In this document: positions 8,155 to 58,578 of the stretch, one piece after another
Position numbering within the stretch: position 1 is the first letter of the stretch
Layout of the letters: each line of letters starts with the position of its first letter
Assembly (NCBI GenBank): GCA_964459205.1
Contig: CAYWKJ010000002.1
Span: forward strand, 235-64,234
Reading direction: 5' to 3'
From: an uncultured Candidatus Peribacteria bacterium
GTDB taxonomy: Bacteria; Patescibacteriota; Gracilibacteria; UBA1369; UBA12473
Length of the DNA: 64,000 nt
Translations under genes and position numbers: made by a program
Notes under the pieces: generated by a model
What the model was told of the DNA's origin: nothing
Seen by the model: only the letters and a program-made list of their open reading frames with translations
The model's database searches: none

Positions 8155-8174
8155 AAGAGTGCTTGACCCTCCCT

Positions 8175-9593
8175 ATGACTCGTAAAAAGAATACCAAAAT
8201 TGTTTGTACTCTGGGGCCTTCCTCAGATTCAAAAGAAATAATCGAACAAATGCTAAATGCCGGGATGAATGTGGCTCGGCTTAATTTTTCGCATGGGTCT
8301 TATGACCATATGAAAAAAATCTACCGCAACCTACGTGCCGCCAGCAAAAAAACCGGGATACAGGTGGCCATGATGCAAGATTTGCAAGGGCCCAAAATTA
8401 GAGTTGGAAAACTCCCAAAAGAAGGGCTTGAACTTAAAAGAATGCAAACTGTAACGCTATTAACTGGGTGTAAAACCGCTAAAGAAGGCATTATTCCAGT
8501 CCCCTACTCTAATCTGCATAAAGATATCAAGCGCGGAGACATTCTTTTGCTTGATGATGGATATTTAGAATTGGTTGTAACTCATAAAAAAGGACGTAAA
8601 ATTAATTGCCGCGTAAAAACTGGCGGCATTTTAAAAACCAATAAAGGTATTAACTGTCCTACTGCCTCCTTGCGAGCTAAGGCTATTACACGCAAAGATC
8701 TTCTAGATTTAGACTTTGGACTTAAACAGGGCATTGATTATGTGTCACTCTCGTTTGTGAAATCTGCCAAAGATATCCACGCCTTACGCGCCGAACTTGT
8801 AAAACGTGGCCACCCGCAAGTGCAAATTATTGCTAAAATCGAACGCCATGAGGCTATCGCCAATCTAGAATCAATTGTAAAAGAAGCGGATGGGATTATG
8901 GTAGCGCGCGGAGATCTAGGCCTAGAAATCCCCGCCGAAAGGGTCCCAATCGCCCAAAAAGAAATCGTACGCTTAGGACTCATTTACGGAAAGCCTACGA
9001 TCATCGCCACTCAAATTCTTGAATCAATGATTAATAATCCGCGCGCCACACGCGCCGAGGTTAGTGACGCCGCCACTGCTATTTTTGATCATGCCGACGC
9101 TTTTATGCTTTCCGGAGAAACTTCGGTCGGCGCTCACCCTGTTCGCGCCGTCAGCACCCTGGCTAAAGTCGCGCACGCTGTCGAAAAAGAACTTCAAGAA
9201 AAAGAACACCTCTTAACTTATCCACATCAAGAAAAAAACTGCCCAATTAGCGATTCAATCTGTTTAAGCGCGGCCATGCTTGCCGAAGAACTCAAGGCAA
9301 AGGCTATCGTAGTCATCACCAAATCTGGTTACACCGCTCGCCAAATCATGAAACACCGCCCCAGCATCCCGACAATGGCTATCACTTATTCCGAAAAAAT
9401 CACCCGCCAGCTCAAATTAGTATGGGGCATGAATAAAAGTTATGTATCAAAAACTCAAATCAAAACAGACCGCATGGCCGACAAACTAGTCCCCCGCATA
9501 GTTAAAAAACTAAACTTAGCCAAAAAAGGTGACCAAATCGTTATTGTAAACGCTGGTCGCAAAAACAACTTCATCTCAACTATTGTGGTATAA
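8175..9593 (+). CDS. pyk: Pyruvate kinase
   Basis: KIVCTLGPSS, MNVARLNFSHGS, MVARGDLGLEIP and ATQILESM motifs. I prefer ATG 8175 over the TTG at 8163 used by the ORF track. CCTCC lies at 8168-8172. Confidence 0.93.
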   Translation: MTRKKNTKIVCTLGPSSDSKEIIEQMLNAGMNVARLNFSHGSYDHMKKIYRNLRAASKKTGIQVAMMQDLQGPKIRVGKLPKEGLELKRMQTVTLLTGCKTAKEGIIPVPYSNLHKDIKRGDILLLDDGYLELVVTHKKGRKINCRVKTGGILKTNKGINCPTASLRAKAITRKDLLDLDFGLKQGIDYVSLSFVKSAKDIHALRAELVKRGHPQVQIIAKIERHEAIANLESIVKEADGIMVARGDLGLEIPAERVPIAQKEIVRLGLIYGKPTIIATQILESMINNPRATRAEVSDAATAIFDHADAFMLSGETSVGAHPVRAVSTLAKVAHAVEKELQEKEHLLTYPHQEKNCPISDSICLSAAMLAEELKAKAIVVITKSGYTARQIMKHRPSIPTMAITYSEKITRQLKLVWGMNKSYVSKTQIKTDRMADKLVPRIVKKLNLAKKGDQIVIVNAGRKNNFISTIVV

Positions 9594-9600
9594 TCGCGAC

Positions 9601-10071
9601 ATGCGAATTATAGGTATAGATCCCGGATTAGCCACAATTGGTTTTGGCATACTAGACACTGATGGACCACGATCGGAGGTCCGAGATTTTGGCTATATTT
9701 CAACTCCCAAAACGCTTAGTAATGCCTCCCGTCTCGGCCAAATTGCCCGTGATCTCGAAGAAATCTGTACCAAATGGAAACCAGATGTCTGCGCTATTGA
9801 AGAGCTTTTCTTCAGTAAAAACACTTCCACCGCTCTAAAAGTGGCCGAAGCGCGCGGAGTTATCTTGCATACCATCAACAGATTGGGCTATCCTATTTTC
9901 GAATACAACCCCGGCCAAATCAAAATCGCAGTTACTGGGCACGGCAAAGCCACCAAGCCAGAAATGCAAAAAATGGTTAGCCTGATCCTCAAATTAAAAG
10001 AGATCCCCAAACCTGATGACGCCGCGGATGCTCTGGCCATTGCCCTCTGTCACGCCAACACCAAATTTTAG
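9601..10071 (+). CDS. ruvC: Crossover junction endodeoxyribonuclease RuvC
   Basis: MRIIGIDPGLATIGFGIL..., EELFF and DAADALAIALCH motifs. ATG 9601 is preferred over the upstream TTG at 9583. Confidence 0.9.
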   Translation: MRIIGIDPGLATIGFGILDTDGPRSEVRDFGYISTPKTLSNASRLGQIARDLEEICTKWKPDVCAIEELFFSKNTSTALKVAEARGVILHTINRLGYPIFEYNPGQIKIAVTGHGKATKPEMQKMVSLILKLKEIPKPDDAADALAIALCHANTKF

Positions 10072-10082
10072 CCCTCCTCTAA

Positions 10083-11519
10083 ATGAAAGGTTTCCTAACC
10101 GGTTTCGTTCTCTCCACATTACTCATGTTTAGCGTGGTTTATTTTAGCGTAGGAAACCCTAATTTAATGACCAGTTTATTTGAAATTCCAGAAGAAACCG
10201 TCGAGGTCGTAGAAATCATTGAAGAAACTCCGGAAACATCCAACAATCCAACTTATATTGATCACCTCCAAAAAGGAGACACTTTATTTGAAAGCGGATT
10301 TTACCCCTTAGCTATCACTGAGTATCAGATGGCTAGCGATCTAGAACCAACTCTCTCGGAACCTTTCACTAAATTAGGTGAAGCCTATTACTTAAATGAC
10401 GAATACGAAAACGCTAAAGCCACTCTCCAAACCGCATTAATAAACAATCCCAACAATATAACGGCTCAAGTCCTGCTTGGAAAAACACACTTATCACTCG
10501 AGTCTTTTGAAACAGCTAAAACTCAATTTGATTCTAGTGATCCCAGCAACACCGAGGTGCTTTACTACCGAGCCTTATTAAATGCTTATTTTGGAGACTA
10601 TGAAAACGCTACCATCGACCTAAATAAGGTTATAACTGCTGGAGATTACCCTAGTTACTCCCAAAACGCCCAAACAATAATTTCTTCCATTAACGAGGCC
10701 AATCTAGCCGAAGATGGCAATCCAAATTATTTAAAAACACTAATTGCGCAGAGTTTTTCTGAAAGCAATGAATCAAGCCTTGCTATCAGCTTACTTTATG
10801 ATGTCTTGCGCGAGGAACCGACTTATCGCGATGCTTGGATTATTTTGGGCTACACCTACCTTTCACTCGAACACTATCGCGATGCTCAAGACGCGCTTCT
10901 CAAAGCCCTAGAACTTGATCCAACCAAAACTGAAACCCGTTACTTCCTCGGGCTCGCTTACTTTGGCGAGGATGAATATGCCTCGGCCCTTACCCAAATC
11001 GAACTGGCCATTGAAAGTGGCTATGAACCACGCGTCCAGGCTTATCAAAAACTAGCTGATATCGCAGTCTTAGCCACTGAATATAAAAAAGCAGTCGAAG
11101 CTTATGAAAACGTTCTAGTTTTAAATTCTTCAGATGTTAACCTCTATATTCGCCCAGTTTGGCTCTATATCGACAAACTAGACCAACCCGATCGCGCCAT
11201 TGAACTAGCCGAACAAGCTGTTACCGAACACTTAAACGAAGCCATGAGCTATAACCTCTTAGGCTGGGCCTTAACGGCCGCCGGCGACTATTCCAACGCC
11301 GAATATAATCTAAACTACGCCTTAGTCCTAAATCCTGACTTAGCCGCTGCCTATCTTAACTTAGGCGTTTGGCACGAAAAACAAGGCCACACCACAGAAG
11401 CTCAAGAGCATTACAAACGAGCCTACACCCTTGATCCAGGAAGCTCTGTTGGTAACCTAGCTGCTAATCGTTATAACGAAATTCTAGCTCAAGAAGAATC
11501 CCTTAACCCTCCCACATGA
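10083..11519 (+). CDS. Membrane-anchored tetratricopeptide (TPR) repeat protein
   Basis: An N-terminal hydrophobic helix (FLTGFVLSTLLMFSVVYFSV) is followed by many 34-aa TPR-like units (A..Y..AL.L.P). Its stop overlaps the pilD start (ATGA at 11516-11519). Confidence 0.8.
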   Translation: MKGFLTGFVLSTLLMFSVVYFSVGNPNLMTSLFEIPEETVEVVEIIEETPETSNNPTYIDHLQKGDTLFESGFYPLAITEYQMASDLEPTLSEPFTKLGEAYYLNDEYENAKATLQTALINNPNNITAQVLLGKTHLSLESFETAKTQFDSSDPSNTEVLYYRALLNAYFGDYENATIDLNKVITAGDYPSYSQNAQTIISSINEANLAEDGNPNYLKTLIAQSFSESNESSLAISLLYDVLREEPTYRDAWIILGYTYLSLEHYRDAQDALLKALELDPTKTETRYFLGLAYFGEDEYASALTQIELAIESGYEPRVQAYQKLADIAVLATEYKKAVEAYENVLVLNSSDVNLYIRPVWLYIDKLDQPDRAIELAEQAVTEHLNEAMSYNLLGWALTAAGDYSNAEYNLNYALVLNPDLAAAYLNLGVWHEKQGHTTEAQEHYKRAYTLDPGSSVGNLAANRYNEILAQEESLNPPT

Positions 11520-14888: not shown

Positions 14889-14987
14889 ATTTTGAAGTAA
14901 ATTTGTCAATCCCATCTCCTCTGGGCTTTACTTCCTTTTACTCCTGTTTTCCGCTAAACTATCGCCGTTATCAAAACCTCCTTTTTA

Positions 14988-15408: not shown

Positions 15409-18400
15409 ATGAACAAACGCATGATTACTCACCTCGGGCTTATCGCTCTGATGGTCATTACTCTTGGTTTTTTTGATCTTTCCTATGACACCCAAAGCAA
15501 CATCTTACCTAGTACCCCAGACAGCTTTGCTGATCAAAAAATTCACCTCGGACTAGACCTGCAAGGAGGAACCCAATTAGATTACAAACTAGACCTCCGC
15601 AAAGTTGACGAAGCCGACCAAGAAGACATTATCGAAGGTGTTTTAGAAGTACTAACTAGACGTGTTAACGGATTAGGAGTTTCTGAGCCCAATATCTATC
15701 GTTCCGAAATTGCCGACGAACAACACATCATTATTGAATTAGCTGGTATCAAAGATATTGAAGAGGCCAAAGCCGTAGTTGGAAAAACCATTCAATTAGA
15801 GTTCAAAGAAGAAGGCGGTGCTGAAATGACTGCCGAAAACCTAGCCCAAGTTGAAACCTCTGCTCAAGCTGCTTTAGATCGTATTTTAGCTGGAGAAGAT
15901 TTTATGGCCGTAGCTTCAGAAGAAGAGCTTGCTAACCCAGGTATCACCTCATATTTCCCTAGCGCTGATGAAGGTTATGAATTTGAAAGCCTATTAGCTG
16001 AAGGATACGCTGAGGCCTTAGCTGACATGGAAATTGGCGAAACTTACTCCGAACTTATTCAAACCAGTGATGGTTACACTTTTGATGTTTCTGGCAGCCT
16101 AACTCCACTTGAGGGTTACTACATTATTAAATTAATTGATGTCCGTGATGGAGAACAAATTATCGAAGAAGACAAAGAAGTAGAAGCTCGCCACGTATTA
16201 ATATCCTATGAAGGCTCAGCCGGAGCCAGTGTTACGCGCAGTAAGGGTGAAGCCGAAGATTTAGCCGAAGAAATCCTTGAAAAAGCTCAAAACGGCGAAT
16301 CTGTAGAAGAATTAGCCATGCAGTACTCGGATGAACCTGGCGCGGCTGATTCTGGCGGTTATCTTGGGTTTTTCGGGCCAAATGACATGGTCAAAGATTT
16401 TGAAGACGCGGCCTTTGCAATGGCGGTCGGAGACGTCTCATCTAAACTTGTAGAAACCGAATTTGGATTTCACATTATCGAAGTTATTGATATTAAAGAA
16501 GCAACCTCAGAAACTGTAATTGAAACTGAATACAATCTTGAAAAACTTTACTATTCTACTGCTCCAGACCCTTGGGGAGATACTGGTTTAACAGGAGAAC
16601 ATTTTGTCCACGCTGACGTGGCTTTCTCCCAAACCTACACTCCTTATGTAACCATTGAATTTAATTCCGAAGGAGCCAAGTTATTTGAAGAATTAACCGA
16701 AGCCAATATTGGCAAAAGAATTGCTATTTTTGTCGGTGGCGAACTAATTTCCGCGCCTAATGTAAATGAAAAAATAAATGGTGGACGAGCGCAAATCACT
16801 GGTAATTTTAGTGTCGAAGAAGCCTCTGAACTAGCTCGTGACCTAAATACTGGTGCTATCCCTGCTCCAGTTATCCTTGTTGGTCAGTACACTATTGGAG
16901 CTTCACTTGGGCAAAGCGCCCTTGCTACCAGCCTCAAAGCCGGTTTAGTCGGTTTAATCCTGCTTTTCCTTTACATGCTGTTTTATTACCGACTACCAGG
17001 ACTCATGGCTAACATTGCGCTACTTTTATACGCAATTCTATTAATTTTCTGTATTAAAGTCGCTATGCCACTAGCATTGGCTCTAATAATCTCGTTAGCA
17101 GTCTTTATCGTGCTGACCGCCATAATTATGCGCAGCAAGGATTCGGGTTGGGAAAAACTCCTATCCTTTTTGCTGGCCTGTTTTGTACTGTTCTTTTTAA
17201 CTTACCTTTTGTCTGATCACGTTGTTCTTACCCTAGCTGGTGTTGGTGGTGTGGTTCTTTCGATTGGTATGGCTGTTGATGCTAATATCCTTATTTTTGA
17301 GCGTCTCCGTGAAGAGCTCCGTAACGGGCGCCCACTTTCTGGAGCAATTGAGGTTGGCTTTGATCGTGCTTGGAGCTCAATCCGCGATTCAAACTTCTCT
17401 TCTCTTATTACCTGTGCGATTTTGATCTATTTTGGTTCTTCAATTATCCGTGGATTTGCGGTTAACTTGGCCCTTGGTATTTTGATTTCCATGTTCACAG
17501 CAATTATTATCACTCGCACCTTACTACGCGCTTTAGTTCACACTAAATTCGCTAACAGCAAATTCCTACTTGGTACTCCAAAAAGACCACACCCTCGCCT
17601 ACCAATTGTTAAAGCCCGCAAAGCTTGGTTCGGAATTTCTGGTGTGCTAATTGTGGCTGCTCTTATTATTATCCCAATCAAAGGATTAAACCTTGGTCTC
17701 GACTTTACTGGTGGGACATTACTTGAAGTCCAATTTAATGAAACTATCCCCACTAGTACTGAATTAAACGACAAAATAACAGAAGTAGAAGAAGAACTCC
17801 TAGGGGCAATAGACACCGCCTCTTATACGGAAGAAACCGAAACCACCTCCACATTGGAAGACGCTCCCCCAGATTTAACAGAAACTAGCTTTATAGCCTT
17901 AGAAGAAGATAAAGAAATCCCAATTGATTTTGGACAACCAATTGTAGTTTCCACTGACGAAAATCGCTTTATGATCCGCATGAAACACATTTCCACTGAA
18001 TCTCACGACGCGCTTATCTCGGCCTTTACTGACAGCTACGGTGAAATCGAAGAAACCCGCTACAACACTATTGGCCCAACTATTGGAGCTTCTATGAAGA
18101 GCAAGGCAGTTATGGCCCTGATTATGGCTTTAATCATGATCGTTCTTTATATTGCCTTTGCCTTCCGCAGCGTGCCTAAACACGTCAGTCCTTGGCGTTT
18201 TGGAGCCACGGCAATTGCCGCGCTTGTGCATGATGTGTTAATCACTGTTGGTATTTTTGTCCTGTTAGGCAGTATTCTTGGCGTAGAAATCGACGCCTTG
18301 TTTGTAACAGCGCTTCTAACCATTATGGGATTCTCGGTACACGATACAATTGTTACCTTTGACCGTGTCCGTGAAAACTTAAAACACCAAAAAGCTGGTG

Positions 18401-18636
18401 AAGATTTTGAAACTGTCTCCGAACGAGCAGTGAACGCAACTTTAGCTCGTTCCTTTAATACCTCTCTTTCAACGTTATTTACAGTGGCCGCGCTATTCTT
18501 CCTAGGTGCGGACTCCATTCATTACTTCCTGTTAGCCCTTATCGTTGGTCTTATCGCTGGTACTTACTCCTCGATCTTTACGGCTACCCCTCTACTAGCT
18601 GAATGGCAACAACGCAAAGCCCCTCGCCGCCGCTAG
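15409..18636 (+). CDS. secDF: Fused protein-export membrane protein SecD/SecF with an inserted tandem parvulin-type PPIase region
   Basis: SecD motifs (LGLDLQGGTQL, GVSEPNIYR, IAIFVGGELISAPNVNEKINGG...ITG), TM bundles, SecF motifs (LGLDFTGGT, YNTIGPTIG) and a second TM bundle. The insertion at 15829-16500 contains ARHVLISY...GGYLGFFGPNDMVKDFEDAAF...GFHIIEV. Confidence 0.92.
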   Translation: MNKRMITHLGLIALMVITLGFFDLSYDTQSNILPSTPDSFADQKIHLGLDLQGGTQLDYKLDLRKVDEADQEDIIEGVLEVLTRRVNGLGVSEPNIYRSEIADEQHIIIELAGIKDIEEAKAVVGKTIQLEFKEEGGAEMTAENLAQVETSAQAALDRILAGEDFMAVASEEELANPGITSYFPSADEGYEFESLLAEGYAEALADMEIGETYSELIQTSDGYTFDVSGSLTPLEGYYIIKLIDVRDGEQIIEEDKEVEARHVLISYEGSAGASVTRSKGEAEDLAEEILEKAQNGESVEELAMQYSDEPGAADSGGYLGFFGPNDMVKDFEDAAFAMAVGDVSSKLVETEFGFHIIEVIDIKEATSETVIETEYNLEKLYYSTAPDPWGDTGLTGEHFVHADVAFSQTYTPYVTIEFNSEGAKLFEELTEANIGKRIAIFVGGELISAPNVNEKINGGRAQITGNFSVEEASELARDLNTGAIPAPVILVGQYTIGASLGQSALATSLKAGLVGLILLFLYMLFYYRLPGLMANIALLLYAILLIFCIKVAMPLALALIISLAVFIVLTAIIMRSKDSGWEKLLSFLLACFVLFFLTYLLSDHVVLTLAGVGGVVLSIGMAVDANILIFERLREELRNGRPLSGAIEVGFDRAWSSIRDSNFSSLITCAILIYFGSSIIRGFAVNLALGILISMFTAIIITRTLLRALVHTKFANSKFLLGTPKRPHPRLPIVKARKAWFGISGVLIVAALIIIPIKGLNLGLDFTGGTLLEVQFNETIPTSTELNDKITEVEEELLGAIDTASYTEETETTSTLEDAPPDLTETSFIALEEDKEIPIDFGQPIVVSTDENRFMIRMKHISTESHDALISAFTDSYGEIEETRYNTIGPTIGASMKSKAVMALIMALIMIVLYIAFAFRSVPKHVSPWRFGATAIAALVHDVLITVGIFVLLGSILGVEIDALFVTALLTIMGFSVHDTIVTFDRVRENLKHQKAGEDFETVSERAVNATLARSFNTSLSTLFTVAALFFLGADSIHYFLLALIVGLIAGTYSSIFTATPLLAEWQQRKAPRRR

Positions 18637-18698: not shown

Positions 18699-18775
18699 GC
18701 GCCAGTAGCTCAGTGGATTAGAGCACTGGTCTTCGGAACCAGGTGTCGGGGGTTCGAATCCCTCCTGGCGCACCA
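18699..18775 (+). tRNA. tRNA-Arg (anticodon UCG), CCA encoded
   Basis: Hand-folded cloverleaf. Acceptor stem GCGCCAG/CTGGCGC and D arm GCTC-AGTGGATTA-GAGC. Anticodon arm CTGGT-CTTCGGA-ACCAG (anticodon TCG). T arm GGGGG-TTCGAAT-CCCTC, then discriminator A and CCA (18773-18775). Confidence 0.93.
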
Positions 18776-18831
18776 GAATAAAAACTTGACCATATAAAAA
18801 ATATGTGTTTTTATCAAACCTAAAAAACACT

Positions 18832-27646: not shown

Positions 27647-27688
27647 CATTTTTGGTATTGTTCCAAAGACGAAATAACCTCCAAATCT

Positions 27689-28654: not shown

Positions 28655-28668
28655 CCCTTCCAACCTAA

Positions 28669-30291
<1,623 letters not shown>

Positions 30292-30311
30292 AACACTTTG
30301 GCCCTCCCAAA

Positions 30312-46400: not shown

Positions 46401-48957
46401 AAAAGTCACCAAGAAATTCGAAAAAAATGGATTCTCTGCTATTGATGAAGCTATTGCGGCAGCTGGTCAACAGCCAAGTCTCGAAGTTACCGAACTCATT
46501 CTAGCTCACGAAGACTTTAGTGGTATGGGACTCGCTGATATCTACGCTACCTTTGAAAATGCTGGAGGACCATCATTTGATGAAATCAAAAACGAACCTG
46601 GATTCCAACAATTTGTAATGGATATGTATAGACAGCAACGGAGTGCTAGAGCTGACGAAATTCTACATGGAATTGCAGCCAACCCTTTAAGCCCAGCCAA
46701 CATCACAATTGGAGTAGAGGCTCAAATAGTCGGTGGCTTTGTTTGTCTTTGCCCAGTAATTGGGACCGCGGTTTACAGTCAAAAACTTGCTTTCCGCAGT
46801 CCAACTGGAATCCCATACGAAATCCAAGGAGATGATGTACTACTCCAACAGTTATTGCACACGGAAATAGATGTAAAGACTGGAGTATTACGAGGCCAAG
46901 TGCCAAAACTTGTTCGCGATCCAGAAAATCCAGAAGATGGCTATGTCGTAGCCATGGAAGGAGAAGCTCACGAGGGCTTACTTATGGGAGCTGAAGCAGT
47001 TGCTTCTTATAATCAAGAATTACGTGGTAGTGGGCTCTTTTTAGTCCCCACTAAAGTTAGACAACCAGGTGAAGATGGTGAAATGATAGAACGAACCTTA
47101 ATGGAACTTAGCATTGCGGAGGCTAATGGCAGCTTAGAAATTATTCCTGATCCTGCTTTAGCCGACCAACTTGCTGTTACTTATAAAAAAGGGGAAGGAG
47201 GCGACTCAGACAGTTACTTATTAGCATTTTCGCCAGGCACTAATCTTTCTATTCGTCGGGTTAATCTTCATTACCCATACGAAAAAAATGGCTCTTATGA
47301 AAGAACTATCATTGTGATTACTGAACAAGGCTCTGGCGTCACTTATGATCAATTACTTGATCAACACGCACCAATGCTCCGTCGTTCCGCTGGAAAACGC
47401 ACTATTTCTGATCTTGCTCATTCAACTGACTATCTAGATGGAGAAATTAACGCTCCAGTCCAAACTCTTTCTAGGTATATGGATCGAGATCCTGATCAAA
47501 TGCATGACTGGACTGAAATTTCTGAACAAGACGCCCTTGCCCGAGATTATCTTAATGATCTTGGCTACCCAGGCTTTGGAGAAGAAGTCAGCGAAGCCAC
47601 ATTGGCTGAATTTGAATCAGCCGCTAGAGAGTTAATGGACCAAAGCAACGCCAGCAATAAACAGTTTAGAATTGATTTCAAAAAATTCTCAACAATCGGC
47701 GGGAATCCCGATCCAGTTAAACTACAAGAACTTTGCGGGGCCAAGGCAGAAGAATTATTTGGACGTGAACTTACCCCGGCTGAATTAACTCAATTCATCC
47801 AAACTCTAGCAATCTTTAGTTTTGTAGATCTTCATAACGATGCTAGCGAGTTAACTGGTGAGGCTCGTGAAAAAGCTCTAAAAGAACAACAAAAAAGTTA
47901 CGAAAGAATGCTTCATGGCTACATGACACAACGCTTAACCATTGAATTCAGCAAACACGTTAGTAACAAAACCCAAGTAAAACAAATGGTCGAACTAGTA
48001 GTTAGCCGCTTAGAAATTTCTGCTGATGAATGGGAAATGTTTGACCCAGAATCCGGCGGCGAACTCCCTACAGGAGGAGTATTTGGATCAATTGTTGGGA
48101 CAGACCGTATCCGTGGTATTCGCCTTACTGAAAACTACCAAGACCAAGAATTCTATGAAATCCTTAAGCTAACACCTTTTGATTTACGCAGCAGTGACCC
48201 AGTAGAAAGAGAAGTAGCTCGTGCTATTGTTGCTATTCTAAATCCACTACCCGAAGAAACAGAAATGACACCAGAAAATGTGGAAGCTGCCCGTGAATTC
48301 TTACTTGATGACTTTACGCAAAGAATGGTTCTTGTGTGGGCTTATAAAAACCCCGAACAACACCAAACCCTCAGCAGGATGTCAGTTATCGCTAAACAAA
48401 ACGATACAAATTTTGCCGAAGCCCTTGTATATCCCGGGCACCAAGAATTACTCACCGAACTCCAAGATTTTGTTCAAGAATCTCGAGAAGCTGAATTATC
48501 AGCCGTACCAAAACGTATTAAACTTAGAGAAAACGTTTACTTAAACTTCGAAAATGTAGAAGCTAGTTTCTTTGTTTTCCAACGTTGTGGAAATGTTTCG
48601 CTCTACCTAAATGAAGACATCTTCATTGAAAACGAAGCTGGAGCTGTAATTGGGGTAGTTGATGAACGCCACGTCATGGTTCAAGCCGAAGCAGCCGAAA
48701 GACAACTCATTGTTGGTCTTGGTGTTAGTCAAAAAGTTAAACACATTGGTGACCATACAAGCGACGTTGTTGAGCATCATGAAGAACCTGAACCTGAACA
48801 ACCTGACCAAGGAGGAACCGTAGAAGAAGGTGGATTTACCCCTACTACTGTTGAAGAAGGCACTTCTAGCCATGAAGAAGGAGAATCTGGCCACAGTGAT
48901 GATGATCCAGAGGACAGTGACACTTCAGGAGCCCCAATGGGTGGTGGCAGCAGCTAA
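43441..48957 (+). CDS. Giant (1838 aa) protein of unknown function with a LysM-like segment, a Gly-rich amphipathic beta region and an acidic disordered tail
   Basis: An uninterrupted 5.5-kb ORF with no obvious signal peptide. A LysM-like segment lies at 43957-44095 (HIVEVKPEGYLKDMARDNGMTYDQIVELNDLISPNFHV). A Gly-rich alternating segment lies at 46060-46400. The C-terminus is HEEPEPEQPDQGG...SDDDPEDSD. Confidence 0.8.
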   Translation: MDFFKKIKQKACRMACDHLASAKPARLVFFTAGGEGPSSEDQTAYEAKKQQLEAEQETLEGISPDAETRAEVQATFQTLNTLLDAFWTAPSEEGDEQDFTVTERGQFDTYKDTALEKHNDLLIELARRQVDERIALRGEAVDRAVAEATEPTESPEAASKTPAQHRAELLSSGHIVEVKPEGYLKDMARDNGMTYDQIVELNDLISPNFHVNKAKGWCYADDTVYVYTSPRAAEEAEVALGFREASEHAEFIDDTPETVVTGEALAEAASESYAREQAQAAELYGEKGADVVGTREALLAQKGRGRGRKESFRGTLLSQGAEGMIDPSMRLPLAAQDWNDLKDSWDTVQGRAGIEEWLKRPTFKAAGIDVDEYLQALAKDGTDTVRFQDLLSAVYRGPAQGEGLVLGLAQQLTGLSIDTKEHKKVLRKIKGNFTNDYDRMMDTLTLETTEKTYIGDGMVRVSLESDDQTLTLEVPLEQVVTLDEDALDMPLEDLTDTEIQAMIDDGDDLSFYMSPEGQLMSARGEDVSGAITEGNIENLAAEHQVERAIVMAMETIYQDVSGLYDLTGNLTYVEAQADESYIDTRSRVEALRDSGSEYGPVAANFSTRLGEALADNQWSNRDLESLGFIRKGDEITYEDIESGRKYTIRKEELFKYYSGDAVIDEILDKFLIQEHTDDGSIATTFKLGDAIAFVNNDVIRLGLSQHPEMVEEYGGGDIEAALVALRLRGEQLTEDGQDLSADQMTLIQDGYLIHATMRHASEVQEGRAAAAELSEAAREGQESLQEESTEIRVFLPDEYLEAIYATNPQFDNPKDRALIADRIRIGFHVGTVKIIDDGVTHTRTHVFYDANGNEVDRFDVDRTIREAGTLDATRLASIGVGVNPVNIQGLGENGNQSLSFGFAGGYNFVNQTANIGAGARYTVEFKNGIQVYADAGVSLGGGAVGGGINIPIGQMRLDLHGHAYVGVPGGSVGAMLTLGNIENRYESKVTKKFEKNGFSAIDEAIAAAGQQPSLEVTELILAHEDFSGMGLADIYATFENAGGPSFDEIKNEPGFQQFVMDMYRQQRSARADEILHGIAANPLSPANITIGVEAQIVGGFVCLCPVIGTAVYSQKLAFRSPTGIPYEIQGDDVLLQQLLHTEIDVKTGVLRGQVPKLVRDPENPEDGYVVAMEGEAHEGLLMGAEAVASYNQELRGSGLFLVPTKVRQPGEDGEMIERTLMELSIAEANGSLEIIPDPALADQLAVTYKKGEGGDSDSYLLAFSPGTNLSIRRVNLHYPYEKNGSYERTIIVITEQGSGVTYDQLLDQHAPMLRRSAGKRTISDLAHSTDYLDGEINAPVQTLSRYMDRDPDQMHDWTEISEQDALARDYLNDLGYPGFGEEVSEATLAEFESAARELMDQSNASNKQFRIDFKKFSTIGGNPDPVKLQELCGAKAEELFGRELTPAELTQFIQTLAIFSFVDLHNDASELTGEAREKALKEQQKSYERMLHGYMTQRLTIEFSKHVSNKTQVKQMVELVVSRLEISADEWEMFDPESGGELPTGGVFGSIVGTDRIRGIRLTENYQDQEFYEILKLTPFDLRSSDPVEREVARAIVAILNPLPEETEMTPENVEAAREFLLDDFTQRMVLVWAYKNPEQHQTLSRMSVIAKQNDTNFAEALVYPGHQELLTELQDFVQESREAELSAVPKRIKLRENVYLNFENVEASFFVFQRCGNVSLYLNEDIFIENEAGAVIGVVDERHVMVQAEAAERQLIVGLGVSQKVKHIGDHTSDVVEHHEEPEPEQPDQGGTVEEGGFTPTTVEEGTSSHEEGESGHSDDDPEDSDTSGAPMGGGSS

Positions 48958-49002: not shown

Positions 49003-52000
49003 ATGAAGTCCCACACAAAACAAAAACTAAAAATAATTCCGCTCATTGTAGTGGGATTGCTGGCAATCATGCTCCCGAGCACTGCTTTCGCCTATGTTAG
49101 CCAATACGCCAGCATCACCAACGAATTATCAGCTGAAATCGATCCACTCGAATCCAGCCCAGATTACGATGAAACTCCAGCTGATGAATACGCTTGTGAA
49201 GCCAGATGGCAATTACACGAACATTTCTTTTACGCAAACAATACTGCCAACTACGACTATTGGATGACAATTCACGCTTTTGCTATTGTTTTGGATTATG
49301 ATTATGCAGGTGGGACTCATGATGCTAATCCAGAAAGCAATGACTTCTTAAGTAATGTCGATACTTCAACTTTATTATGTACTTTAGCGGACAATACTTA
49401 TCATGACTGTTCATTTGATGTAGATACCGATTTAGGGACTGAAATCGCGTCTGGATCAGAATGGAACGGAACTTCTGTTACTTATCAAGAACTAGACTTT
49501 TTGCCAGGAAATCCACGCGGTCTTTTATGGCAATATTCCTCTGATGACCCAGGGAATATCTATGAAACTCCTTGGCTAAATGGAAGAGATAACATGTGGG
49601 AAGATGTGCCAGATTTTGGAGAAGAAATTTCTTTTGAGCTGCTTGCCTACGACGAAGAATACACCGCAACTACAACTTCCTACACTTTAACAGAGGTCAT
49701 GTATATTGACCCTGATGATGACTACGGAAGCCTTAGCAATTGGTACCATATTTACACAAATCAAGCAGACCCAGACGGAGATGACGACTCTGACGCTGAC
49801 CCGGATGGCGACTATGTTTACTGGTACGGAATGAATGGTATTGCCCGTTCAGTTTTTGCCGATTGTGTGGATGCTTGTGTGAGTTTAGAAATGACCACTC
49901 CAACCGAAATGACTGCTGATGACGCTGATGGGATTACTAATATTCAAATTGAAGCCACTAGTGATAATGATGACAGTCCAGAATGGGACGGAACTTACAC
50001 TTATTCTAGTGATGGCACCTGTGAATTTGCTGAAACTTGGACTGGAGCCTGGCTTGGCACAGGTGACGCCACTCTTTCGGAAACCGATGACACCAGTGTG
50101 TATGTTTATGACTGTACCGCTGGCGATACTATTTATGTCGAAGACGTTGATTACAGCGCCGAATGTAACGCTGAAATTGAGATTGGTGATGCTTGTGTTG
50201 ATTTAAATATTACTCAACCACCAACAACTATAACCGCCGAGGCAATTGCTGATGGACATGTAATCGTAACTATCGAAGCCAATGCTGCTAGTGGCGACAC
50301 TTGGCTTGGGGAATATACTTTCTCAGCTGAGGCTGAAGACGGCAGCCCTTCAGATGGGCGCTTTCACTCAAACTATACCGCTGGCTTAGCTGGCGCGGGA
50401 ACTAATTCATACACTACTACGGCCGAAACTGTGCACTTTTTTGACGGTTCCCCAGGTGACACAATTTATGTTGAAGAAACTACATACCCCCTCGCCTGTT
50501 TAGACCAAGTTGGATCCGAGGAGCTTTATTGTGCTGATCTTAGTGTAACTCCACTTACTTTTACTTACGAAGAAGCTGTAAATCTTGTTTCTATTGATAT
50601 CGAAGCCGAAGATCAAATTGGCGAAGCATGGCCCACAACTTATACCATCGAAGGTGATGGAACTTGTAAGTTCACCGAAGACGCTAATGACGTCCCAACT
50701 GATAGTGGTGTTTCTTCACTAACTTCCTCGGCTAGCACTATTTACATTTATGGTTGTAGCCCCGAAGAACAAATCACTGTTACGGATGTTGATTACCCAG
50801 TTGATTGTAGCGCTCAAGCAGAGGTTCTTGATGAAGATCTTGTTTGTCGCTCAATGAGCATTCTACCCACAGCTATCACTTACGAAGAAAGTCTTGAAAT
50901 CCAAGAAATTAGCTACGAAACCCTTGATCAAAACGATAACGCGTGGACAGATGGATCCTACACACTTTACAGCACTGGAGGCACCTGTCTCTTTACTGAA
51001 ACTCAAGCTGAAGCCGAAGCTGGCACTGGTGTAGCCAATCTAGCAACCACCGCCACCACGGCTTATGTTTATAACTGTGATGGCGGCGAAACTATTCATG
51101 CCCAAGAAAACACTTACCCTGATGACTGTTTTGCTGAAATTCCAGTAGGAACCGAAACTTTAGTATGTGCTTCAATCGAGGCCATTCCAACTTCTATCAC
51201 TTATGAAGAAGTTCAAGAAATCGTTGAAATCAATTTTAGCACTTATGATCAAAATAGTGATGACTGGGAAAGCCTTTATAATGTCTTTAGCGAAACTGAC
51301 ACTTGTCTCTTTGCCGAAACTTATGAAGATCTTGAAAGCGGTAACGGCCAAACCTCACTTGATTCTATTGCCAGCACCACTGTTTACGTAACAGGCTGTG
51401 GATCTGGAGAAATAATCAAAATCGAAGAAATCTACTTCCCTGATGATTGTTATATAAATATTCCAATTGGCACCGAAGAATTAGTCTGTGCCGACTTAGT
51501 AACTGAACCAACTTCCTTCACCTATGAAGAAAGTCTCGAAATCCAAGAAGTTGTTATAACTGCCGGTGATCAACACAACGCCACTTGGGATGGTACTTAC
51601 AACATTTGGAGCACTGGCGAAGCCTGTTTATTCACCGAAACTCTCCAAGAAGCAGAATCTGGCTCAGGTGAAATCTCACTCGATACTGTAGCTGAAACTT
51701 TTTATGTTTATAACTGTGCACAAGGAGATATAGTCTATGTTTTTGAACAAACTTATCCTGATGACTGTTTAGCCGAAATTCCATTTGGAACTGAAGAATT
51801 AGTCTGTACTGAAATGACTGTTTCCAAAGACTCACTCACCTACGAGGAAAGCCAAACCATTACCGAAATCACCTTAAGTTCAGTTGATCAAAACGGTGAT
51901 GATTGGCCAATTCGCTATGATATTTGGGGCTTAGAAAGAACCTGTTTATTCACAGAAACTTATGAGGACGCCGAAGCCGGACTTGGCACTGATGTCTTAA

Positions 52001-54954
52001 GTTTAAGAGATGAAAACTCAACCTTTTATGTTTATGGTTGTGACACAACTGATACCATTTATATAGAAGACGTTGATTATTCAGATGTCTGTTCCGCTGA
52101 ATTACCGATCGCGGAAGAAGAACTTTACTGTGCCGACTTAGTGACTGAACCAGTCACTTTCACTTATGAAGAAAGTCTAGAAATCCAAGAAGTTGTCATA
52201 ACTGCCAATAACCAAAATAGTGAAACTTGGTACGGTACTTATAATATTTGGAGCACTGGTGAAGCCTGTTTATTCACCGAAACCCTCGAAGAAGCAGAAG
52301 CTGGTGGCGGAGAAATCTCACTTGATCTTACTGTAGATTCTACTGGTGAAAATATGTTCTATGTGTATAACTGTGCCGCCGGCGACACTGTTTATGTTTT
52401 TGAACAAAATTATCCGGATATCTGTTTAGCAGAAATCACTATTGATACAGCTTGTATCAGCATTACCCTAGACCCAGCTACAACTACTGAAACTGATGTA
52501 ACCTTTACTATTACTTCTGACCCAACTGATTGGGCCGGACCATGGATTTGGTCTACCACCAACCCAGACGGAGTATTCACCATTGGCACTGAAAGTGGGA
52601 GCGAAATAACAACCACTTCAACCACCGTGAATTACTCTGGAGAGGCTGAAGATGTAATCTCTGTTTATGAAGCTGGTGATTATGGTGATGTTTGTTACGC
52701 CACAGCTGTTTTGGATACTGCTCCATACTGTGGTGACGGCAATCTAGATGAAGGCGAAGAATGTGACGACGGTAATAATGTTAATAGTGATGGCTGTACA
52801 GCCACCTGTGAATTAGAAGAAGCCCCCTACTGCGGAAACGGCATCATCGAAGAAGGTGAAGATTGTGATGATGGCGAATTAAACGGCACCGAATTAAGCA
52901 GCTGTAACAGCGTTTGTGGCGTTGAAGGCGGCGGTGGCGGCGGTGGTGGTGGTGGCGGTGGTGGTGGCGGCGGTGCAGATGACTACTGTTATAAGCTTCG
53001 CTTCACTGACCCAGAAGACTTTGTTGGTCAAGATGCCGGATCCTGTACTGACGATGAAGAAGAAAACGACTATTTCTGTTCTCGAAGTAACGACATCTAC
53101 ACTTTCTCTGGTTACACCGCTGGTGATGAAATCGAGTTCTATGTAGAAGCTCGCAACAATATGGAAAGTAAATGGAAAGGATCAGGCAATGACTATGACT
53201 ACGAAATCGTTTGGGAATCTGACGACGCAACAGCCACTTTAGACTTTACTCAAGACGAAAACACCTCAACTGGTACTTATACCGTTGGAGACTCTGATTT
53301 TGAACTAACTGTGGAAGTAAACAGCTCATGTTCAGCTACATTTGAGCAAGAAGAGGAAGAAGTCGAACCTCCAGAAGTTGATCGCACCGACTATATTGAA
53401 AAAAGTGTTTACACCTATAACTTTGGTTGGTTTGAATCTGATGAAACTTCATCCATTAATAGCGACGGATTTACAAGATATGCTCATGACTATGACTACG
53501 CCTTCTACAAAATTCGCTATTACTCATCTGATGCTGCCTCTGGCAACCCAGAATCCATTGTAATTGCTGATGATATCGCGACCGATATCGAAGGCATAAT
53601 TGCTGATGATGAATTATCTGATTTAGATGGTGGATACATTGAACTTCGCATTCCTGGCGCCGAAACTGGTGTAGGAGCTGAAGGAGGAACTGAAGAAGTT
53701 TACGAATGGATGGATACTGATGCTTCCACTGATGCAACTATGGTCATCTACTACTCAGCCAGCGAAGATGATGTTCCAGAATGTAGCACTTTAGCTTCTG
53801 AAGACGCTGACAATACAACCTGTTATGAAGGCTCAATTTCTTCAGAAATAACAATTAATAATCTTCAAGATATCAAAGATGACTCTGATGGTGACATTAT
53901 TGTGAAATATGTAGGACGTGTTCACAATGGGACTGACTTTGTTTGTGATGAACTAACGGAACGCACCGATGTTACTTGTCCGGTTCAGGTTCTAGAAAAC
54001 ACAGTTACAGCCACTGACCCAGATGGTGGAGAGTTAACTGACAGCGCTATTATTACTGTTATTTGTCCTTACATGCTCACCCAAAATGCTGGTGATGTTT
54101 ATATCGAAGGAGATCTAAGCACTTATGATGTTTCTTGTTACGAAGAATTCTCTACCTTTGCTAGCAGTGATGCTGTTGTTATGGGTAAAGAAGTTAGCTT
54201 CTTATCTCGTCTTTCTAGTTACATCTCAAGTAAAAGTAATGACTTTGTTAAAGATCTAAGTACAGTTTGGAGCAAAATCAAAACCACTGATGATGGTGAC
54301 ATTGCTTCTTTTGAAGCTGTTTCCCAAAACACTGATCAAGTTGAATCCCAATTTGATTCCAGCAAGGTTACCGAAGATGATGGCGAAGAAAGAATCATTA
54401 TTTCTAACTTTGACCAATTTACATCAATTGCAGATCATTTGATCTCTAATCCAAGCCAAAACGTTTACAAATTCACGGGGACAGATGTGGTGTTTGATTT
54501 AGGAGCAAATAAAGTACCGGCTGGCGCCTATACAATTATCATCGAAGACGCTGATCTCCGGATTCGCGACAATATTGAATATGATGACACTGGTCATGAT
54601 TTTACAGATCTAGATGAAATTCCATCGATTGCCTTTATTGTGCTTGGTGGAGATGTTTATGTTGAAAACGACCCAGCTTACGTAACCGACATGGTTGGAG
54701 TCTACTACATCGAAGAACGCGCCGGAGTAGGTGGAAATCTTGATGGTGATTGGACCGATCCATTTACCACGCTCACGATTTACGGATCTGTTTACGGAAA
54801 TATCAATAGTCTACTTGGAAACCGTACTTTTGCCGGACCAGCTAACTATAGCCATGGTAATGTTGTGCTTCGCTATGACGAGCGCATCTTCCTAAACACT
54901 CCTCCAGGTCTTGAAGAGTATGTAGATATCTCTTCTGAACGAACTGTCCACTAA
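49003..54954 (+). CDS. Giant (1983 aa) secreted repeat protein: N-terminal domain, nine ~105-aa four-Cys repeats, two Cys-rich CxDG repeats, poly-Gly hinge and a large C-terminal region
   Basis: Signal peptide MKSHTKQKLKIIPLIVVGLLAIMLPSTAFA. A DPDGDDDSDADPDGD calcium-binding-like run lies at 49771-49815. The repeat array lies at 49873-52722. Two Cys-rich units follow: PYCGDGNLDEGEECDDGNNVNSDGCTATCELE and PYCGNGIIEEGEDCDDGELNG...C. Then come 16 consecutive Gly and a ~650-aa acidic/beta-rich C-terminal part. Confidence 0.85.
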   Translation: MKSHTKQKLKIIPLIVVGLLAIMLPSTAFAYVSQYASITNELSAEIDPLESSPDYDETPADEYACEARWQLHEHFFYANNTANYDYWMTIHAFAIVLDYDYAGGTHDANPESNDFLSNVDTSTLLCTLADNTYHDCSFDVDTDLGTEIASGSEWNGTSVTYQELDFLPGNPRGLLWQYSSDDPGNIYETPWLNGRDNMWEDVPDFGEEISFELLAYDEEYTATTTSYTLTEVMYIDPDDDYGSLSNWYHIYTNQADPDGDDDSDADPDGDYVYWYGMNGIARSVFADCVDACVSLEMTTPTEMTADDADGITNIQIEATSDNDDSPEWDGTYTYSSDGTCEFAETWTGAWLGTGDATLSETDDTSVYVYDCTAGDTIYVEDVDYSAECNAEIEIGDACVDLNITQPPTTITAEAIADGHVIVTIEANAASGDTWLGEYTFSAEAEDGSPSDGRFHSNYTAGLAGAGTNSYTTTAETVHFFDGSPGDTIYVEETTYPLACLDQVGSEELYCADLSVTPLTFTYEEAVNLVSIDIEAEDQIGEAWPTTYTIEGDGTCKFTEDANDVPTDSGVSSLTSSASTIYIYGCSPEEQITVTDVDYPVDCSAQAEVLDEDLVCRSMSILPTAITYEESLEIQEISYETLDQNDNAWTDGSYTLYSTGGTCLFTETQAEAEAGTGVANLATTATTAYVYNCDGGETIHAQENTYPDDCFAEIPVGTETLVCASIEAIPTSITYEEVQEIVEINFSTYDQNSDDWESLYNVFSETDTCLFAETYEDLESGNGQTSLDSIASTTVYVTGCGSGEIIKIEEIYFPDDCYINIPIGTEELVCADLVTEPTSFTYEESLEIQEVVITAGDQHNATWDGTYNIWSTGEACLFTETLQEAESGSGEISLDTVAETFYVYNCAQGDIVYVFEQTYPDDCLAEIPFGTEELVCTEMTVSKDSLTYEESQTITEITLSSVDQNGDDWPIRYDIWGLERTCLFTETYEDAEAGLGTDVLSLRDENSTFYVYGCDTTDTIYIEDVDYSDVCSAELPIAEEELYCADLVTEPVTFTYEESLEIQEVVITANNQNSETWYGTYNIWSTGEACLFTETLEEAEAGGGEISLDLTVDSTGENMFYVYNCAAGDTVYVFEQNYPDICLAEITIDTACISITLDPATTTETDVTFTITSDPTDWAGPWIWSTTNPDGVFTIGTESGSEITTTSTTVNYSGEAEDVISVYEAGDYGDVCYATAVLDTAPYCGDGNLDEGEECDDGNNVNSDGCTATCELEEAPYCGNGIIEEGEDCDDGELNGTELSSCNSVCGVEGGGGGGGGGGGGGGGGADDYCYKLRFTDPEDFVGQDAGSCTDDEEENDYFCSRSNDIYTFSGYTAGDEIEFYVEARNNMESKWKGSGNDYDYEIVWESDDATATLDFTQDENTSTGTYTVGDSDFELTVEVNSSCSATFEQEEEEVEPPEVDRTDYIEKSVYTYNFGWFESDETSSINSDGFTRYAHDYDYAFYKIRYYSSDAASGNPESIVIADDIATDIEGIIADDELSDLDGGYIELRIPGAETGVGAEGGTEEVYEWMDTDASTDATMVIYYSASEDDVPECSTLASEDADNTTCYEGSISSEITINNLQDIKDDSDGDIIVKYVGRVHNGTDFVCDELTERTDVTCPVQVLENTVTATDPDGGELTDSAIITVICPYMLTQNAGDVYIEGDLSTYDVSCYEEFSTFASSDAVVMGKEVSFLSRLSSYISSKSNDFVKDLSTVWSKIKTTDDGDIASFEAVSQNTDQVESQFDSSKVTEDDGEERIIISNFDQFTSIADHLISNPSQNVYKFTGTDVVFDLGANKVPAGAYTIIIEDADLRIRDNIEYDDTGHDFTDLDEIPSIAFIVLGGDVYVENDPAYVTDMVGVYYIEERAGVGGNLDGDWTDPFTTLTIYGSVYGNINSLLGNRTFAGPANYSHGNVVLRYDERIFLNTPPGLEEYVDISSERTVH
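49873..52722 (+). repeat. Nine tandem ~315-nt coding repeats (four conserved Cys per unit)
   Basis: Unit consensus is roughly (V/Y)C..L...P..FTYEES.EI.E......DQN...W...Y.I.S.G..CLFTET...AE.G.G...L.......FYVYNC..GD..Y..E..YPDDC.AEIP.GTEEL. Units 6 (51484-51800) and 8 (52126-52449) are nearly identical. Confidence 0.85.
52723..52926 (+). repeat. Two Cys-rich repeats of the CGDG...GE.CDDGN...DGC...C type
   Basis: PYCGDGNLDEGEECDDGNNVNSDGCTATCELEEA followed by PYCGNGIIEEGEDCDDGELNGTELSSCNSVCGVE. The pattern resembles the myxobacterial-type cysteine-rich repeat family, recognised from memory. Confidence 0.6.
52927..52974 (+). repeat. (GGY)16 tract encoding 16 consecutive glycines
   Basis: ggc ggc ggt ggc ggc ggt ggt ggt ggt ggc ggt ggt ggt ggc ggc ggt, read directly. 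Confidence 0.95.
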
Positions 54955-57513: not shown

Positions 57514-57800
57514 TACATAACTGGTTTAACCTTGATTTGATCTTTTTCAATCGGCAATTCCGAACACTCCAAAAGCTTCTTAGGATTTTCGCAATCAACA
57601 ACCTCATCCTCGCGCAAAACATTAGTAAGCCCAGTAACTTGTGAAGTAGGCTCTACTCCATCTGTATCCACCTTATTTAAACACTCCATATACTCAAAAA
57701 CACCCGAAAGCTGCTGCGCAAAAACCTCAACCTCAGCTTCGTCAAGAGAAAGACGAGCTAATTTGGCCACATGTTTAACCTGATCTTTGGAGATTTTCAT
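57513..57800 (-). CDS. gatC: Glutamyl-tRNA(Gln)/aspartyl-tRNA(Asn) amidotransferase subunit C
   Basis: A 95-aa protein with VKHVAKLARLSLDEAEVEVFAQQLSGVFEYM, typical of GatC. It shares 1 nt (57513) with gatA. Confidence 0.9.
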   Translation of the reverse strand: MKISKDQVKHVAKLARLSLDEAEVEVFAQQLSGVFEYMECLNKVDTDGVEPTSQVTGLTNVLREDEVVDCENPKKLLECSELPIEKDQIKVKPVM

Positions 57801-57838
57801 GATTTGAGTCTAACCTAAAAACGTGTAAAATAAAAGCT

Positions 57839-58132
57839 ATGAACACTGTGCTTAATATCAAAAAAGTCTCCCTCCTTTTCTTTATTCTTTTTGGAGGGGC
57901 ACACATCTTTTCATCGCTCATGTTGGCGAACGATTATTTTAGTGATAATATGCGCCTCCTGAATGGCACGCTTGATATTCCAGCTATTATCTGTGGATTT
58001 ATTTACGCCGCAACAAGCCTTAAACTCTATTTAGAAGACATGGGCAAATCCACTAAAACATTTGATTTAGTTGCTGGTGTCATCGGTGGACTAATTCTGA
58101 TCGCACTTCTGTACGTAAACTTCCTTCTCTAA
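57839..58132 (+). CDS. Small membrane protein (three predicted TM helices), unknown function
   Basis: Hydrophobic segments LLFFILFGGAHIFSSLMLA, IPAIICGFIYAATSL and LVAGVIGGLILIALLYVNFLL. TAATG overlap with the next gene. Confidence 0.6.
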   Translation: MNTVLNIKKVSLLFFILFGGAHIFSSLMLANDYFSDNMRLLNGTLDIPAIICGFIYAATSLKLYLEDMGKSTKTFDLVAGVIGGLILIALLYVNFLL

Positions 58133-58578
58133 TGAAAAAGAAAGTAATGGCCTTCGGCACCTTTGACTATTTGCACGCTGGGCACGAGAATTATCTCAAA
58201 AAAGCGGCTGCTTTAGGCGAACAATTAATCGTGGTAATTGCCCGCGATCGTACTGCCGAAAGCATCCGCGGAACCTGTCCAGATCACTCCGAACGCCAAC
58301 GCCTAAACCGCATCAAAGCACTCCCTTACGTAACAAAAGCCGTCCTCGGCGACTTAAATGACAAATACAAAGTTCTCAAAAAACACAAACCAGATGTGAT
58401 TGTCCTTGGTTATGACCAATTTGTATTCACTCAACAGCTTTCTAAGGTACTTATCACCTTAAAATCCGCGGCCGAAATCGTTCGTTTAAAACCGTACAAA
58501 CCAGAAATGTACAAAAGCTCCATCATCCGCGAAACCTCCCTTAAATGTCCTTCAAAACCTCTACAAGTCGTAGCCTAA
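58132..58578 (+). CDS. Cytidylyltransferase-fold nucleotidyltransferase, RibL-like (candidate archaeal-type FMN adenylyltransferase)
   Basis: GTFDYLHAGH (HxGH) motif, LIVVIARD and DVIVLGYDQ; 148 aa. It lacks the RTxGISTT motif of TagD/CCT-type cytidylyltransferases. The layout matches my recollection of archaeal RibL. Confidence 0.65.
   Translation: MKKKVMAFGTFDYLHAGHENYLKKAAALGEQLIVVIARDRTAESIRGTCPDHSERQRLNRIKALPYVTKAVLGDLNDKYKVLKKHKPDVIVLGYDQFVFTQQLSKVLITLKSAAEIVRLKPYKPEMYKSSIIRETSLKCPSKPLQVVA

Follow-up and report, generated by a model that had tools for sequence, protein, structure and literature searches.

Bacteria that dispense with a Shine-Dalgarno (SD) motif are known to choose their start codons by means of leaderless messenger RNAs (mRNAs), unstructured A-rich leaders, or Kozak-like adenines. 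The classical SD itself is spaced by about 5–9 nucleotides (nt) from the start codon, and the S1 enhancers, single-stranded pyrimidine tracts upstream of the start, promote binding of the 30S subunit independently of an SD. Here we describe a short C-rich sequence, the CCTCC box (CCUCC in the mRNA), lying directly upstream of start codons in a 64,000-nt stretch of DNA (hereafter, the window; positions 235 to 64,234 of contig CAYWKJ010000002.1, assembly GCA_964459205.1) from an uncultured Candidatus Peribacteria bacterium. By the homologues of its pyruvate kinase, the window is placed in Candidatus Peregrinibacteria of the Candidate Phyla Radiation (CPR, Patescibacteria). A discrete and conserved C-rich pentamer beside the AUG would, if it is a start signal, be of a further kind than those listed above. 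Strikingly, it has the very sequence of the anti-SD, although it is found in a CPR lineage in which the published tails of the 16S ribosomal RNA (rRNA) have lost the anti-SD.

The 16S rRNAs of five Peregrinibacteria genomes end in GAACACTTCCTTA, GAACATTCCCTTA, or GATTACCTCTTTT instead of GATCACCTCCTTA (PMC10783764, Table 4 and S4, after Amin et al. 2018). These published tails, which do not come from the 16S rRNA of the subclade studied here, are pyrimidine-rich and have lost the CCUCC core, and none of them is complementary to the box. Ca. Peribacter has been classed as SD-scarce (PMC10783764), and bS21 is frequently absent from Peregrinibacteria (PMC9297842). A missing SD is thus explained by the known biology of the lineage, namely the loss of the anti-SD, whereas the CCTCC box is not. 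In the searchable literature, neither CPR nor any other organisms were found to have been described as having a CCUCC or C-rich motif at starts; the box appears to be undescribed so far, the absence of the SD from the lineage being already published.

The CCTCC box at gene starts of the window

A first-pass annotation of the window, made from the sequence alone, had listed eight start codons preceded by an exact CCTCC, and all eight boxes and ATGs were found where it had placed them. When gene starts were set mechanically, with every long non-overlapping open reading frame (ORF) made to begin at its first ATG and the motif ignored, the same eight starts were all recovered. On the plus strand, the box precedes the genes for pyruvate kinase (pyk; box at 8168–8172, 2 nt to ATG 8175), a TPR protein (10073–10077, directly 3′ of the ruvC stop codon and 5 nt to ATG 10083), prepilin peptidase (pilD; 11508–11512, 3 nt to ATG 11516), a small cupin (14977–14981, 6 nt to ATG 14988), TrpS (27678–27682, 6 nt to ATG 27689), a protein that has a GspF/PilC domain at its N terminus (PilC-N; 30303–30307, 4 nt to ATG 30312), and FtsX (58535–58539, 5 nt to ATG 58545). 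The box of murE is on the minus strand (40986–40990, GGAGG on the plus strand) and is 1 nt away from ATG 40984. All these gene names were upheld by profile searches. Three of the boxes are located inside the preceding ORF: that of pilD in the TPR gene's 3′ end (stop at 11519, with an ATGA overlap), that of murE in the upstream riboflavin-kinase ORF, and that of ftsX in an upstream ORF overlapping by 34 nt.

The positional relation between box and ATG survived both the motif-blind and the independent gene calls. Gene calls in public assemblies place the starts of pyk, trpS, and PilC-N at the same positions, and in-frame stop codons are found immediately 5′ of several box-preceded starts, such as the TAA ahead of the ftsX ATG. 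The ftsX start that had been picked with the help of the motif does fit the family, with the FtsX profile alignment beginning at residue 7 of the product from ATG 58545, and with a relative having an ftsX product of 302 amino acids (aa), identical in length, and an identical 34-nt overlap.

Degenerate boxes are also present. The longest rpoD ORF (33416–34633, minus strand) encodes 405 aa and overlaps dnaG; the ATG at 34573, 4 nt past the dnaG stop, yields a product of 385 aa as compared with 383–389 aa in relatives, and is therefore the likely true start. For this family-length start the earlier observation of a CTCCT 6 nt upstream holds (34580–34584, minus strand), and rpoD of the relative L156 likewise has CTCCT. 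The pyrG gene has CCCTTCC (28655–28661, plus strand, 10 nt to ATG 28672), with an exact CCTCC at the orthologous position in L155, L157, and L158, and a cytidylyltransferase-like gene has the second-tier variant CTTCC (58120–58124, plus strand, 7 nt to ATG 58132). The CCTCC said to precede an in-frame ATG at 18955 is present as well (18949–18953, plus strand, 1 nt to the ATG), but its status is uncertain: the orphan ORF concerned (18805–19413) has neither a Pfam match nor similarity to the same-position ORF of L158 and is thus unusable as evidence of the predictive value of the motif.

The pentamer occurs at −15 to −1 in 8 of the 39 genes of the window, as compared with 0.26 genes expected from its rate in sense coding sequences (binomial p = 1.8e-10). 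The enrichment put forward in the first-pass annotation therefore stands, while the accompanying estimate of one gene in six has to be revised to about one in five. Internal ATGs are preceded by CCTCC in only 9 of 1254 cases (0.7%; Fisher p = 6.5e-9 versus gene starts), and when the upstream 15-mers were shuffled in 20,000 trials, the number of such genes averaged 0.85 and never exceeded 6, versus the 8 observed; by both controls proposed at the outset, CCTCC is commoner at starts in the window. On the two strands together, CCTCC-N(1–6)-ATG is seen 17 times against 8.9 expected, and 8 of the 17 (or 9, if ATG 18955 is counted) are gene starts, so that the excess corresponds to the start-associated set. 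Within genes the pentamer is not depleted (35 in sense coding sequences versus ~26 expected by a hand calculation from base composition).

De novo word counting, also proposed earlier, was done on a clade set of 99 genes from the window and five close relatives (L002–L006), and returned CCTCC as the top word, present in 20 genes and enriched ~20-fold over the coding background (p ~1e-20), followed by CCCTCC in 14 genes. The same script applied to Firmicutes loci returned AGGAGG as the top word. The aligned boxes have the consensus a-a-C-CCTCC-Y. Pyrimidine 5-mers of the same composition that lie off this extended box are scarce in the clade set (CCCCT and TCCCC, 2 genes each), as is CCCCC (1 gene), as compared with 20 for CCTCC, indicating that the box is more than mere C-richness; among the genes without an exact CCTCC, the commonest pyrimidine 5-mers are TTCCT and CTTCC.

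The distance from the box to the ATG is 1–6 nt in 20 of 22 occurrences in the clade set and in 15 of 17 in independently called relatives, and it stays in this range across intergenic distances from −34 to +99 nt. The box is found in the sense strand only, GGAGG being upstream of none of the 99 clade genes, and in the window itself none of the 39 starts is preceded by GGAGG, AGGAG, or GGAG, in agreement with the earlier remark that no SD is seen. As had also been pointed out, the box reads in the sense of the canonical anti-SD and, consisting of pyrimidines only, cannot pair with a canonical 16S tail. G makes up only 9% of the 20 nt before the gene starts of the window, and start regions, boxed and boxless alike, are less stably folded than internal windows. 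No consistent G-rich cis partner or hairpin for the box was seen in minimum-free-energy folds of the eight starts (−40 to +40).

Conservation of the box and its restriction to one subclade

A scan of a genome collection with pyk gave 25 loci, among which the five close relatives have 63–85% pyk identity. The pyk box is present in four of these five and in a further relative, L159, that is, in six of seven genomes with the window included; L002 has CCTTCC instead. In the alignment of the seven pyk upstream regions only two islands are conserved, TGnTATAAT and, 13–16 nt after it, CCTCC, whereas the rest has diverged, which argues for purifying selection on the pentamer. The first island is in the window an extended −10 promoter-like box, TGtTATAAT (8146–8154, plus strand), located 13 nt 5′ of the CCTCC and ending 20 nt before the ATG, a position from which transcription would start so as to give a leader of ~13–17 nt. 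Upstream of the remaining CCTCC genes, three of which start inside preceding ORFs, there is no TATAAT in the nearest 45 nt. Judged by −10 boxes, which would be expected to end ~6–8 nt from a leaderless start, the CCTCC genes do not appear to be leaderless.

The box is conserved also at other orthologous starts, down to 51–62% protein identity for the TPR, pilD, cupin, PilC-N, and ftsX genes. It is kept at the TPR gene in three close relatives (L002, L003, and L004; L159 has CCTCTCCC), at pilD in two (L002 and L004; L003 has CCCCTTCCCT), and at the cupin gene in three (L002, L003, and L004), with none in L006 and L159. The upstream regions of these two boxless cupin orthologues (L006, 9224; L159, 19426) are unusually G-rich (gtgggagcaATG and tatcagggATG), unlike other leaders there. 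A second set, of more distant relatives, was assembled through homologues of PilC-N and RelA (L155–L159 and L162, including 65 kb of a 1.43-Mb contig) and has independent gene calls; here the box lies no more than 18 nt from the start in 16 of 88 genes, versus 0.73 expected (p = 4e-17). The PilC-N box is present in four of five genomes, being exact in L155, L157, and L158, while L156 has CATCCTC; the ftsX box is found in the 1.43-Mb genome and kept in L162 at a spacing of 2 nt. At trpS the relatives have CCTCT, CCCTC, or CCTCA, and murE of L157 has CCTCC 13 nt upstream. Box membership varies by genome, with pyrG, priA, and dnaG gaining or losing the box, and the genes that carry it are functionally diverse (glycolysis, tRNA synthetases, pili, cell division, cell wall, and replication). 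Unrelated functions and drifting membership point to a general signal rather than a regulon.

In distant Peregrinibacteria (≤51% pyk identity; 170 genes), neither CCTCC nor GGAGG is found upstream of starts; the box is thus restricted to one Peregrinibacteria subclade. The leaders of the distant genomes are as G-poor as those of the box clade, and TATAA, TAAT, and TATAAT are among their most enriched words within 18 nt upstream (L007–L016, L018, L023, and L025). These −10 boxes adjoining the ATG suggest that leaderless initiation is dominant there.

Starts of other kinds coexist with the box in the window genome. The ruvC gene has no CCTCC; its TGgTATAAT (9586–9594, plus strand), conserved in L002–L004 and L159, ends 6 nt before ATG 9601, so that its transcript probably starts at or adjoining the AUG and is a leaderless mRNA. 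Stop/start overlaps of 4 nt are also used. In window genes without CCTCC, T is seen at −13/−12 and A at −11 to −9, with G nearly absent from −13 to −1, and CTTAA and TTAAC are also enriched upstream of starts; this T/A pattern could be a second, weaker feature of start regions or an echo of upstream stop codons. No Pfam match above threshold was obtained for three giant ORFs (3685–8130, 43441–48957, and 49003–54954, encoding 1481, 1838, and 1983 aa), whose leaders are rich in A, free of G, and devoid of CCTCC. Among the other proteins of the window, MurE (39641–40984, minus strand) is only 447 aa long, with the family profile aligning from about 68–86 and the usual N-terminal domain missing, and its orthologue in the 1.43-Mb genome is of equal length. 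SecD, SecF, and a PPIC-type peptidyl-prolyl isomerase domain are fused into one 1075-aa protein (15409–18636), a fusion conserved in relatives. The relA/spoT gene (62315–64000, minus strand) continues past the window end; its deposited product has 806 aa (P0174), and the ATG at 63946, which would open a 543-aa ORF, is accordingly an internal start. No exact record match was found for the ftsX protein or for that of the truncated relA ORF.

A possible reader of the box and the alternatives

The sense-strand restriction, the 1–6-nt spacing at any intergenic distance, and the location of some boxes within ORFs together speak for an action at the level of mRNA in initiation, not for a promoter element. 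We propose, with a probability of about 0.5, that the CCUCC box is a lineage-specific non-SD translation-initiation signal read by some constituent of the 30S platform or of the exit channel for mRNA, the likeliest candidate being a protein such as bS1. The box would occupy about −2 to −11 of the mRNA, with the E-site codon on one side and the place of a classical SD on the other, and could aid the 30S subunit in settling at the correct AUG of ~20% of the genes, including those with very short leaders and operon-internal ones that start within the preceding ORF. The remaining genes may rely on leaderless starts (−10 box 6–7 nt from the ATG), on stop/start overlap, or on G-poor, A-rich, unstructured leaders. 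Since the box consists of pyrimidines only and the published tails are rich in them, the two cannot pair with each other, and the reading of a single-stranded tract is favoured over Watson–Crick pairing with the 16S 3′ tail; the candidate reader would bind such a C-rich tract and may be bS1 or a neighbouring platform protein. S1 was reportedly found by Boni et al. in 1991 to prefer pyrimidine-rich single strands. Among the three meanings suggested in the first-pass annotation, that of a non-canonical recognition element for the ribosome or a protein is the one that fits best.

Three points weigh against this proposal. The sites of S1 in E. coli are located further upstream and are rich in U and A rather than C; an rRNA segment altered in this subclade might pair with the box, although we regard this as improbable for the reasons given below; and the exact box, being in just ~20% of genes, could tag a minority of them to be regulated, processed, or stabilised instead of serving for docking in general. 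The idea that Era reads the box as an ACCUCC-like sequence was dropped, era being lost from most CPR (PMC10582724).

The mechanism of recognition has a substantial chance of being a new one. It is possible, though clearly less probable than reading by a bS1-like component, that CCUCC is read through a partner absent from known bacteria, either a re-written segment of 16S rRNA (a GGAGG-like linker or extended tail), or a pocket in a platform protein that accommodates an anti-SD-like tract in replacement of the lost 16S tail. Either would, if true, constitute a new mode of bacterial start-site selection. Whichever way it is read, the exact motif offers a concrete handle for experiments, and the box should improve the prediction of start codons in metagenome-assembled genomes of this clade.

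Two further explanations appear improbable, to much the same degree. The box may be a signal for processing or stability, at or after which an endonuclease, perhaps one also maturing the 16S 3′ end, cuts to produce leaderless or nearly leaderless downstream cistrons. Box and 16S tail are alike in sense, the remnant of 1–6 nt would be short enough for leaderless-type initiation, leaderless-type starts are used in the lineage, and many boxes are at internal genes of operons; but pyk has its own promoter ~20 nt upstream, making cleavage unneeded. We know of no nuclease of such specificity, and the maturation of the 16S 3′ end is governed by its context in the 30S subunit and not by a bare motif. 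Alternatively, the box may be an operator, through which a trans-acting RNA-binding protein or small RNA controls the translation of a subset of genes. Its presence in about one-fifth of the genes and its overlap with the landing zone of the ribosome, as in many translational operators, are compatible with such a role, whereas the unrelated functions of the carriers and the shifts in membership among genomes at pyrG, priA, and dnaG are not what an operator predicts.

Somewhat more doubtful still is a mirror image of the SD, in which a G-rich, GGAGG-like segment in the 16S 3′ tail of the subclade, or in the linker following helix 45, pairs with CCUCC. The SD-like position, the strand specificity, and the conservation of an exact 5-mer would all be accounted for. 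Weaker points in its favour are that the tolerated variants are mostly C-to-U changes or U insertions (CTTCC, CCTTCC, and CCTCT) that would retain G–U pairs, and that a spacing of 1–6 nt would suit a partner nearer to helix 45, where TGGAUC could become TGGAGG by two substitutions. All three published tail sequences from Peregrinibacteria are, on the contrary, pyrimidine-rich, and ~20% of genes is low for a primary SD system. The window contains no rRNA, its sole RNA gene being that for tRNA-Arg (18699–18775), and as glmS fills the left and relA the right end of the window, neither does the whole 65.5-kb contig; no 16S signature was detected in 26 loci, nor in later loci from the 1.43-Mb genome.

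The pairing partner was further sought in 241 million metagenome records, with a pattern of helix 45, TGGA, 0–6 nt of any sequence, and GGRGG. Although the box clade itself is present in metagenomes of the Joint Genome Institute (JGI), no G-rich 16S tail answering to this pattern was found. A scan for a TGGAKK linker gave no TGGAGG and nothing from the box clade among the at least 120 matches listed, which were mostly GGATTACCTCC tails of other organisms; no protein listed from the flanks of these loci exceeded 41% identity to Peregrinibacteria proteins. The earlier suggestion that the box is a partner for G-rich RNA is thereby disfavoured, with no cis partner in the folds and no G-rich 16S tail in the metagenome records. 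The scan also brought to light that in many environmental 16S genes (L035–L154, among the matches listed) the linker ahead of the anti-SD reads GGATTACCTCC in place of GGATCACCTCC, and that CTAGGGAG, a sequence complementary to that of the tail, often comes next. One metagenome contig (L101) contains a complete 16S gene (2436–3900, minus strand) with the tail GGATTATCCCTTTT and without the CCUCC core; its flanking genes include those for ClpP, RimK, and ferritin, and have leaders that are very G-poor and A/C-rich (e.g., aaaaaaccATG). It seems to stem from a further SD-less organism whose anti-SD is degenerate, its kinship to the box clade not being demonstrable. A scan of viral contigs for 16S tails matched four contigs, whose tails are outside this comparison.

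A by-product of composition, in which G-poor unstructured leaders are selected and CCTCC is just a frequent word in them, has been largely refuted. The 9% G content of the 20 nt upstream and the weak folding irrespective of the box agree with such a selection; however, none of the 20,000 shuffles reached eight genes, pyrimidine 5-mers of like composition are otherwise scarce, the pentamer is kept while its flanks diverge, and the distant Peregrinibacteria are equally G-poor yet boxless. That the leader is designed so as to escape pairing with the anti-SD, as had also been suggested, is unlikely, because the published tails are already devoid of CCUCC and depletion of G would not conserve an exact pentamer. 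Finally, an artefact of start choice, conceivable because the original starts had been chosen by eye and ATGs might have been picked for the CCTCC before them, is refuted by the motif-blind recovery of all eight as first ATGs, the agreement of independent calls for pyk, trpS, and PilC-N, the in-frame stops directly upstream of several starts, and the recurrence of the enrichment in 88 independently called genes.

Comparison with known modes of start-site selection

In its outward features the box resembles the SD, being a short exact motif in the sense strand, a few nt upstream of the starts of both first and internal operon genes, enriched ~20-fold over background, and conserved at orthologues. 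It differs in being the complement of the SD, that is, identical to the core of the canonical anti-SD and made of pyrimidines only, and in its spacing of 1–6 nt, shorter than the classical optimum. In SD-using genomes, moreover, the motif is present at the majority of genes, whereas the box is found at ~20% (8 of 39, 20 of 99, and 16 of 88), and the known 16S tails of the lineage are pyrimidine-rich and degenerate.

Bacteroidia, too, have almost no SD and G-depleted, unstructured starts, and select them by other features of the mRNA (PMC13000453; see also PMC7797042). Their start regions are A-rich and Kozak-like, with the anti-SD sequestered by bS21, bS18, and bS6. However, the Bacteroidia signal consists of scattered adenines (−3, −6, −12, and −13) with no discrete C-rich pentamer, and most Bacteroidia keep the anti-SD, whereas Peregrinibacteria are often without bS21 and their published tails without CCUCC. 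The window has a profile of A enriched at −9 to −11 with general depletion of G, and does not follow the adenine pattern of Bacteroidia.

Leaderless mRNAs (group C of GeneMarkS-2, with a −10 box ~10 nt from the start) seem to coexist with the box in this genome, as in ruvC, and to dominate in the distant Peregrinibacteria. The box-bearing starts differ from them, in that the −10 box of pyk is ~20 nt upstream and several boxes lie within upstream ORFs. The S1 enhancers of E. coli and of the non-SD leaders of cyanobacteria and plastids have known sites that are U-rich or A/U-rich, loosely placed, and further upstream, whereas the box is an exact C-rich pentamer tightly set beside the AUG.

The closest likeness in sequence is to an artificial system: Hui and de Boer are said to have engineered, in 1987, specialised ribosomes in which an SD of CCUCC is combined with an anti-SD of GGAGG. 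The mRNA motif of that system is the same as the box, but no natural 16S with a GGAGG anti-SD emerged from the scan of 241 million records. Should the reader of the box nevertheless turn out to be a segment of rRNA, the subclade would provide a natural precedent for orthogonal pairs of ribosome and mRNA.

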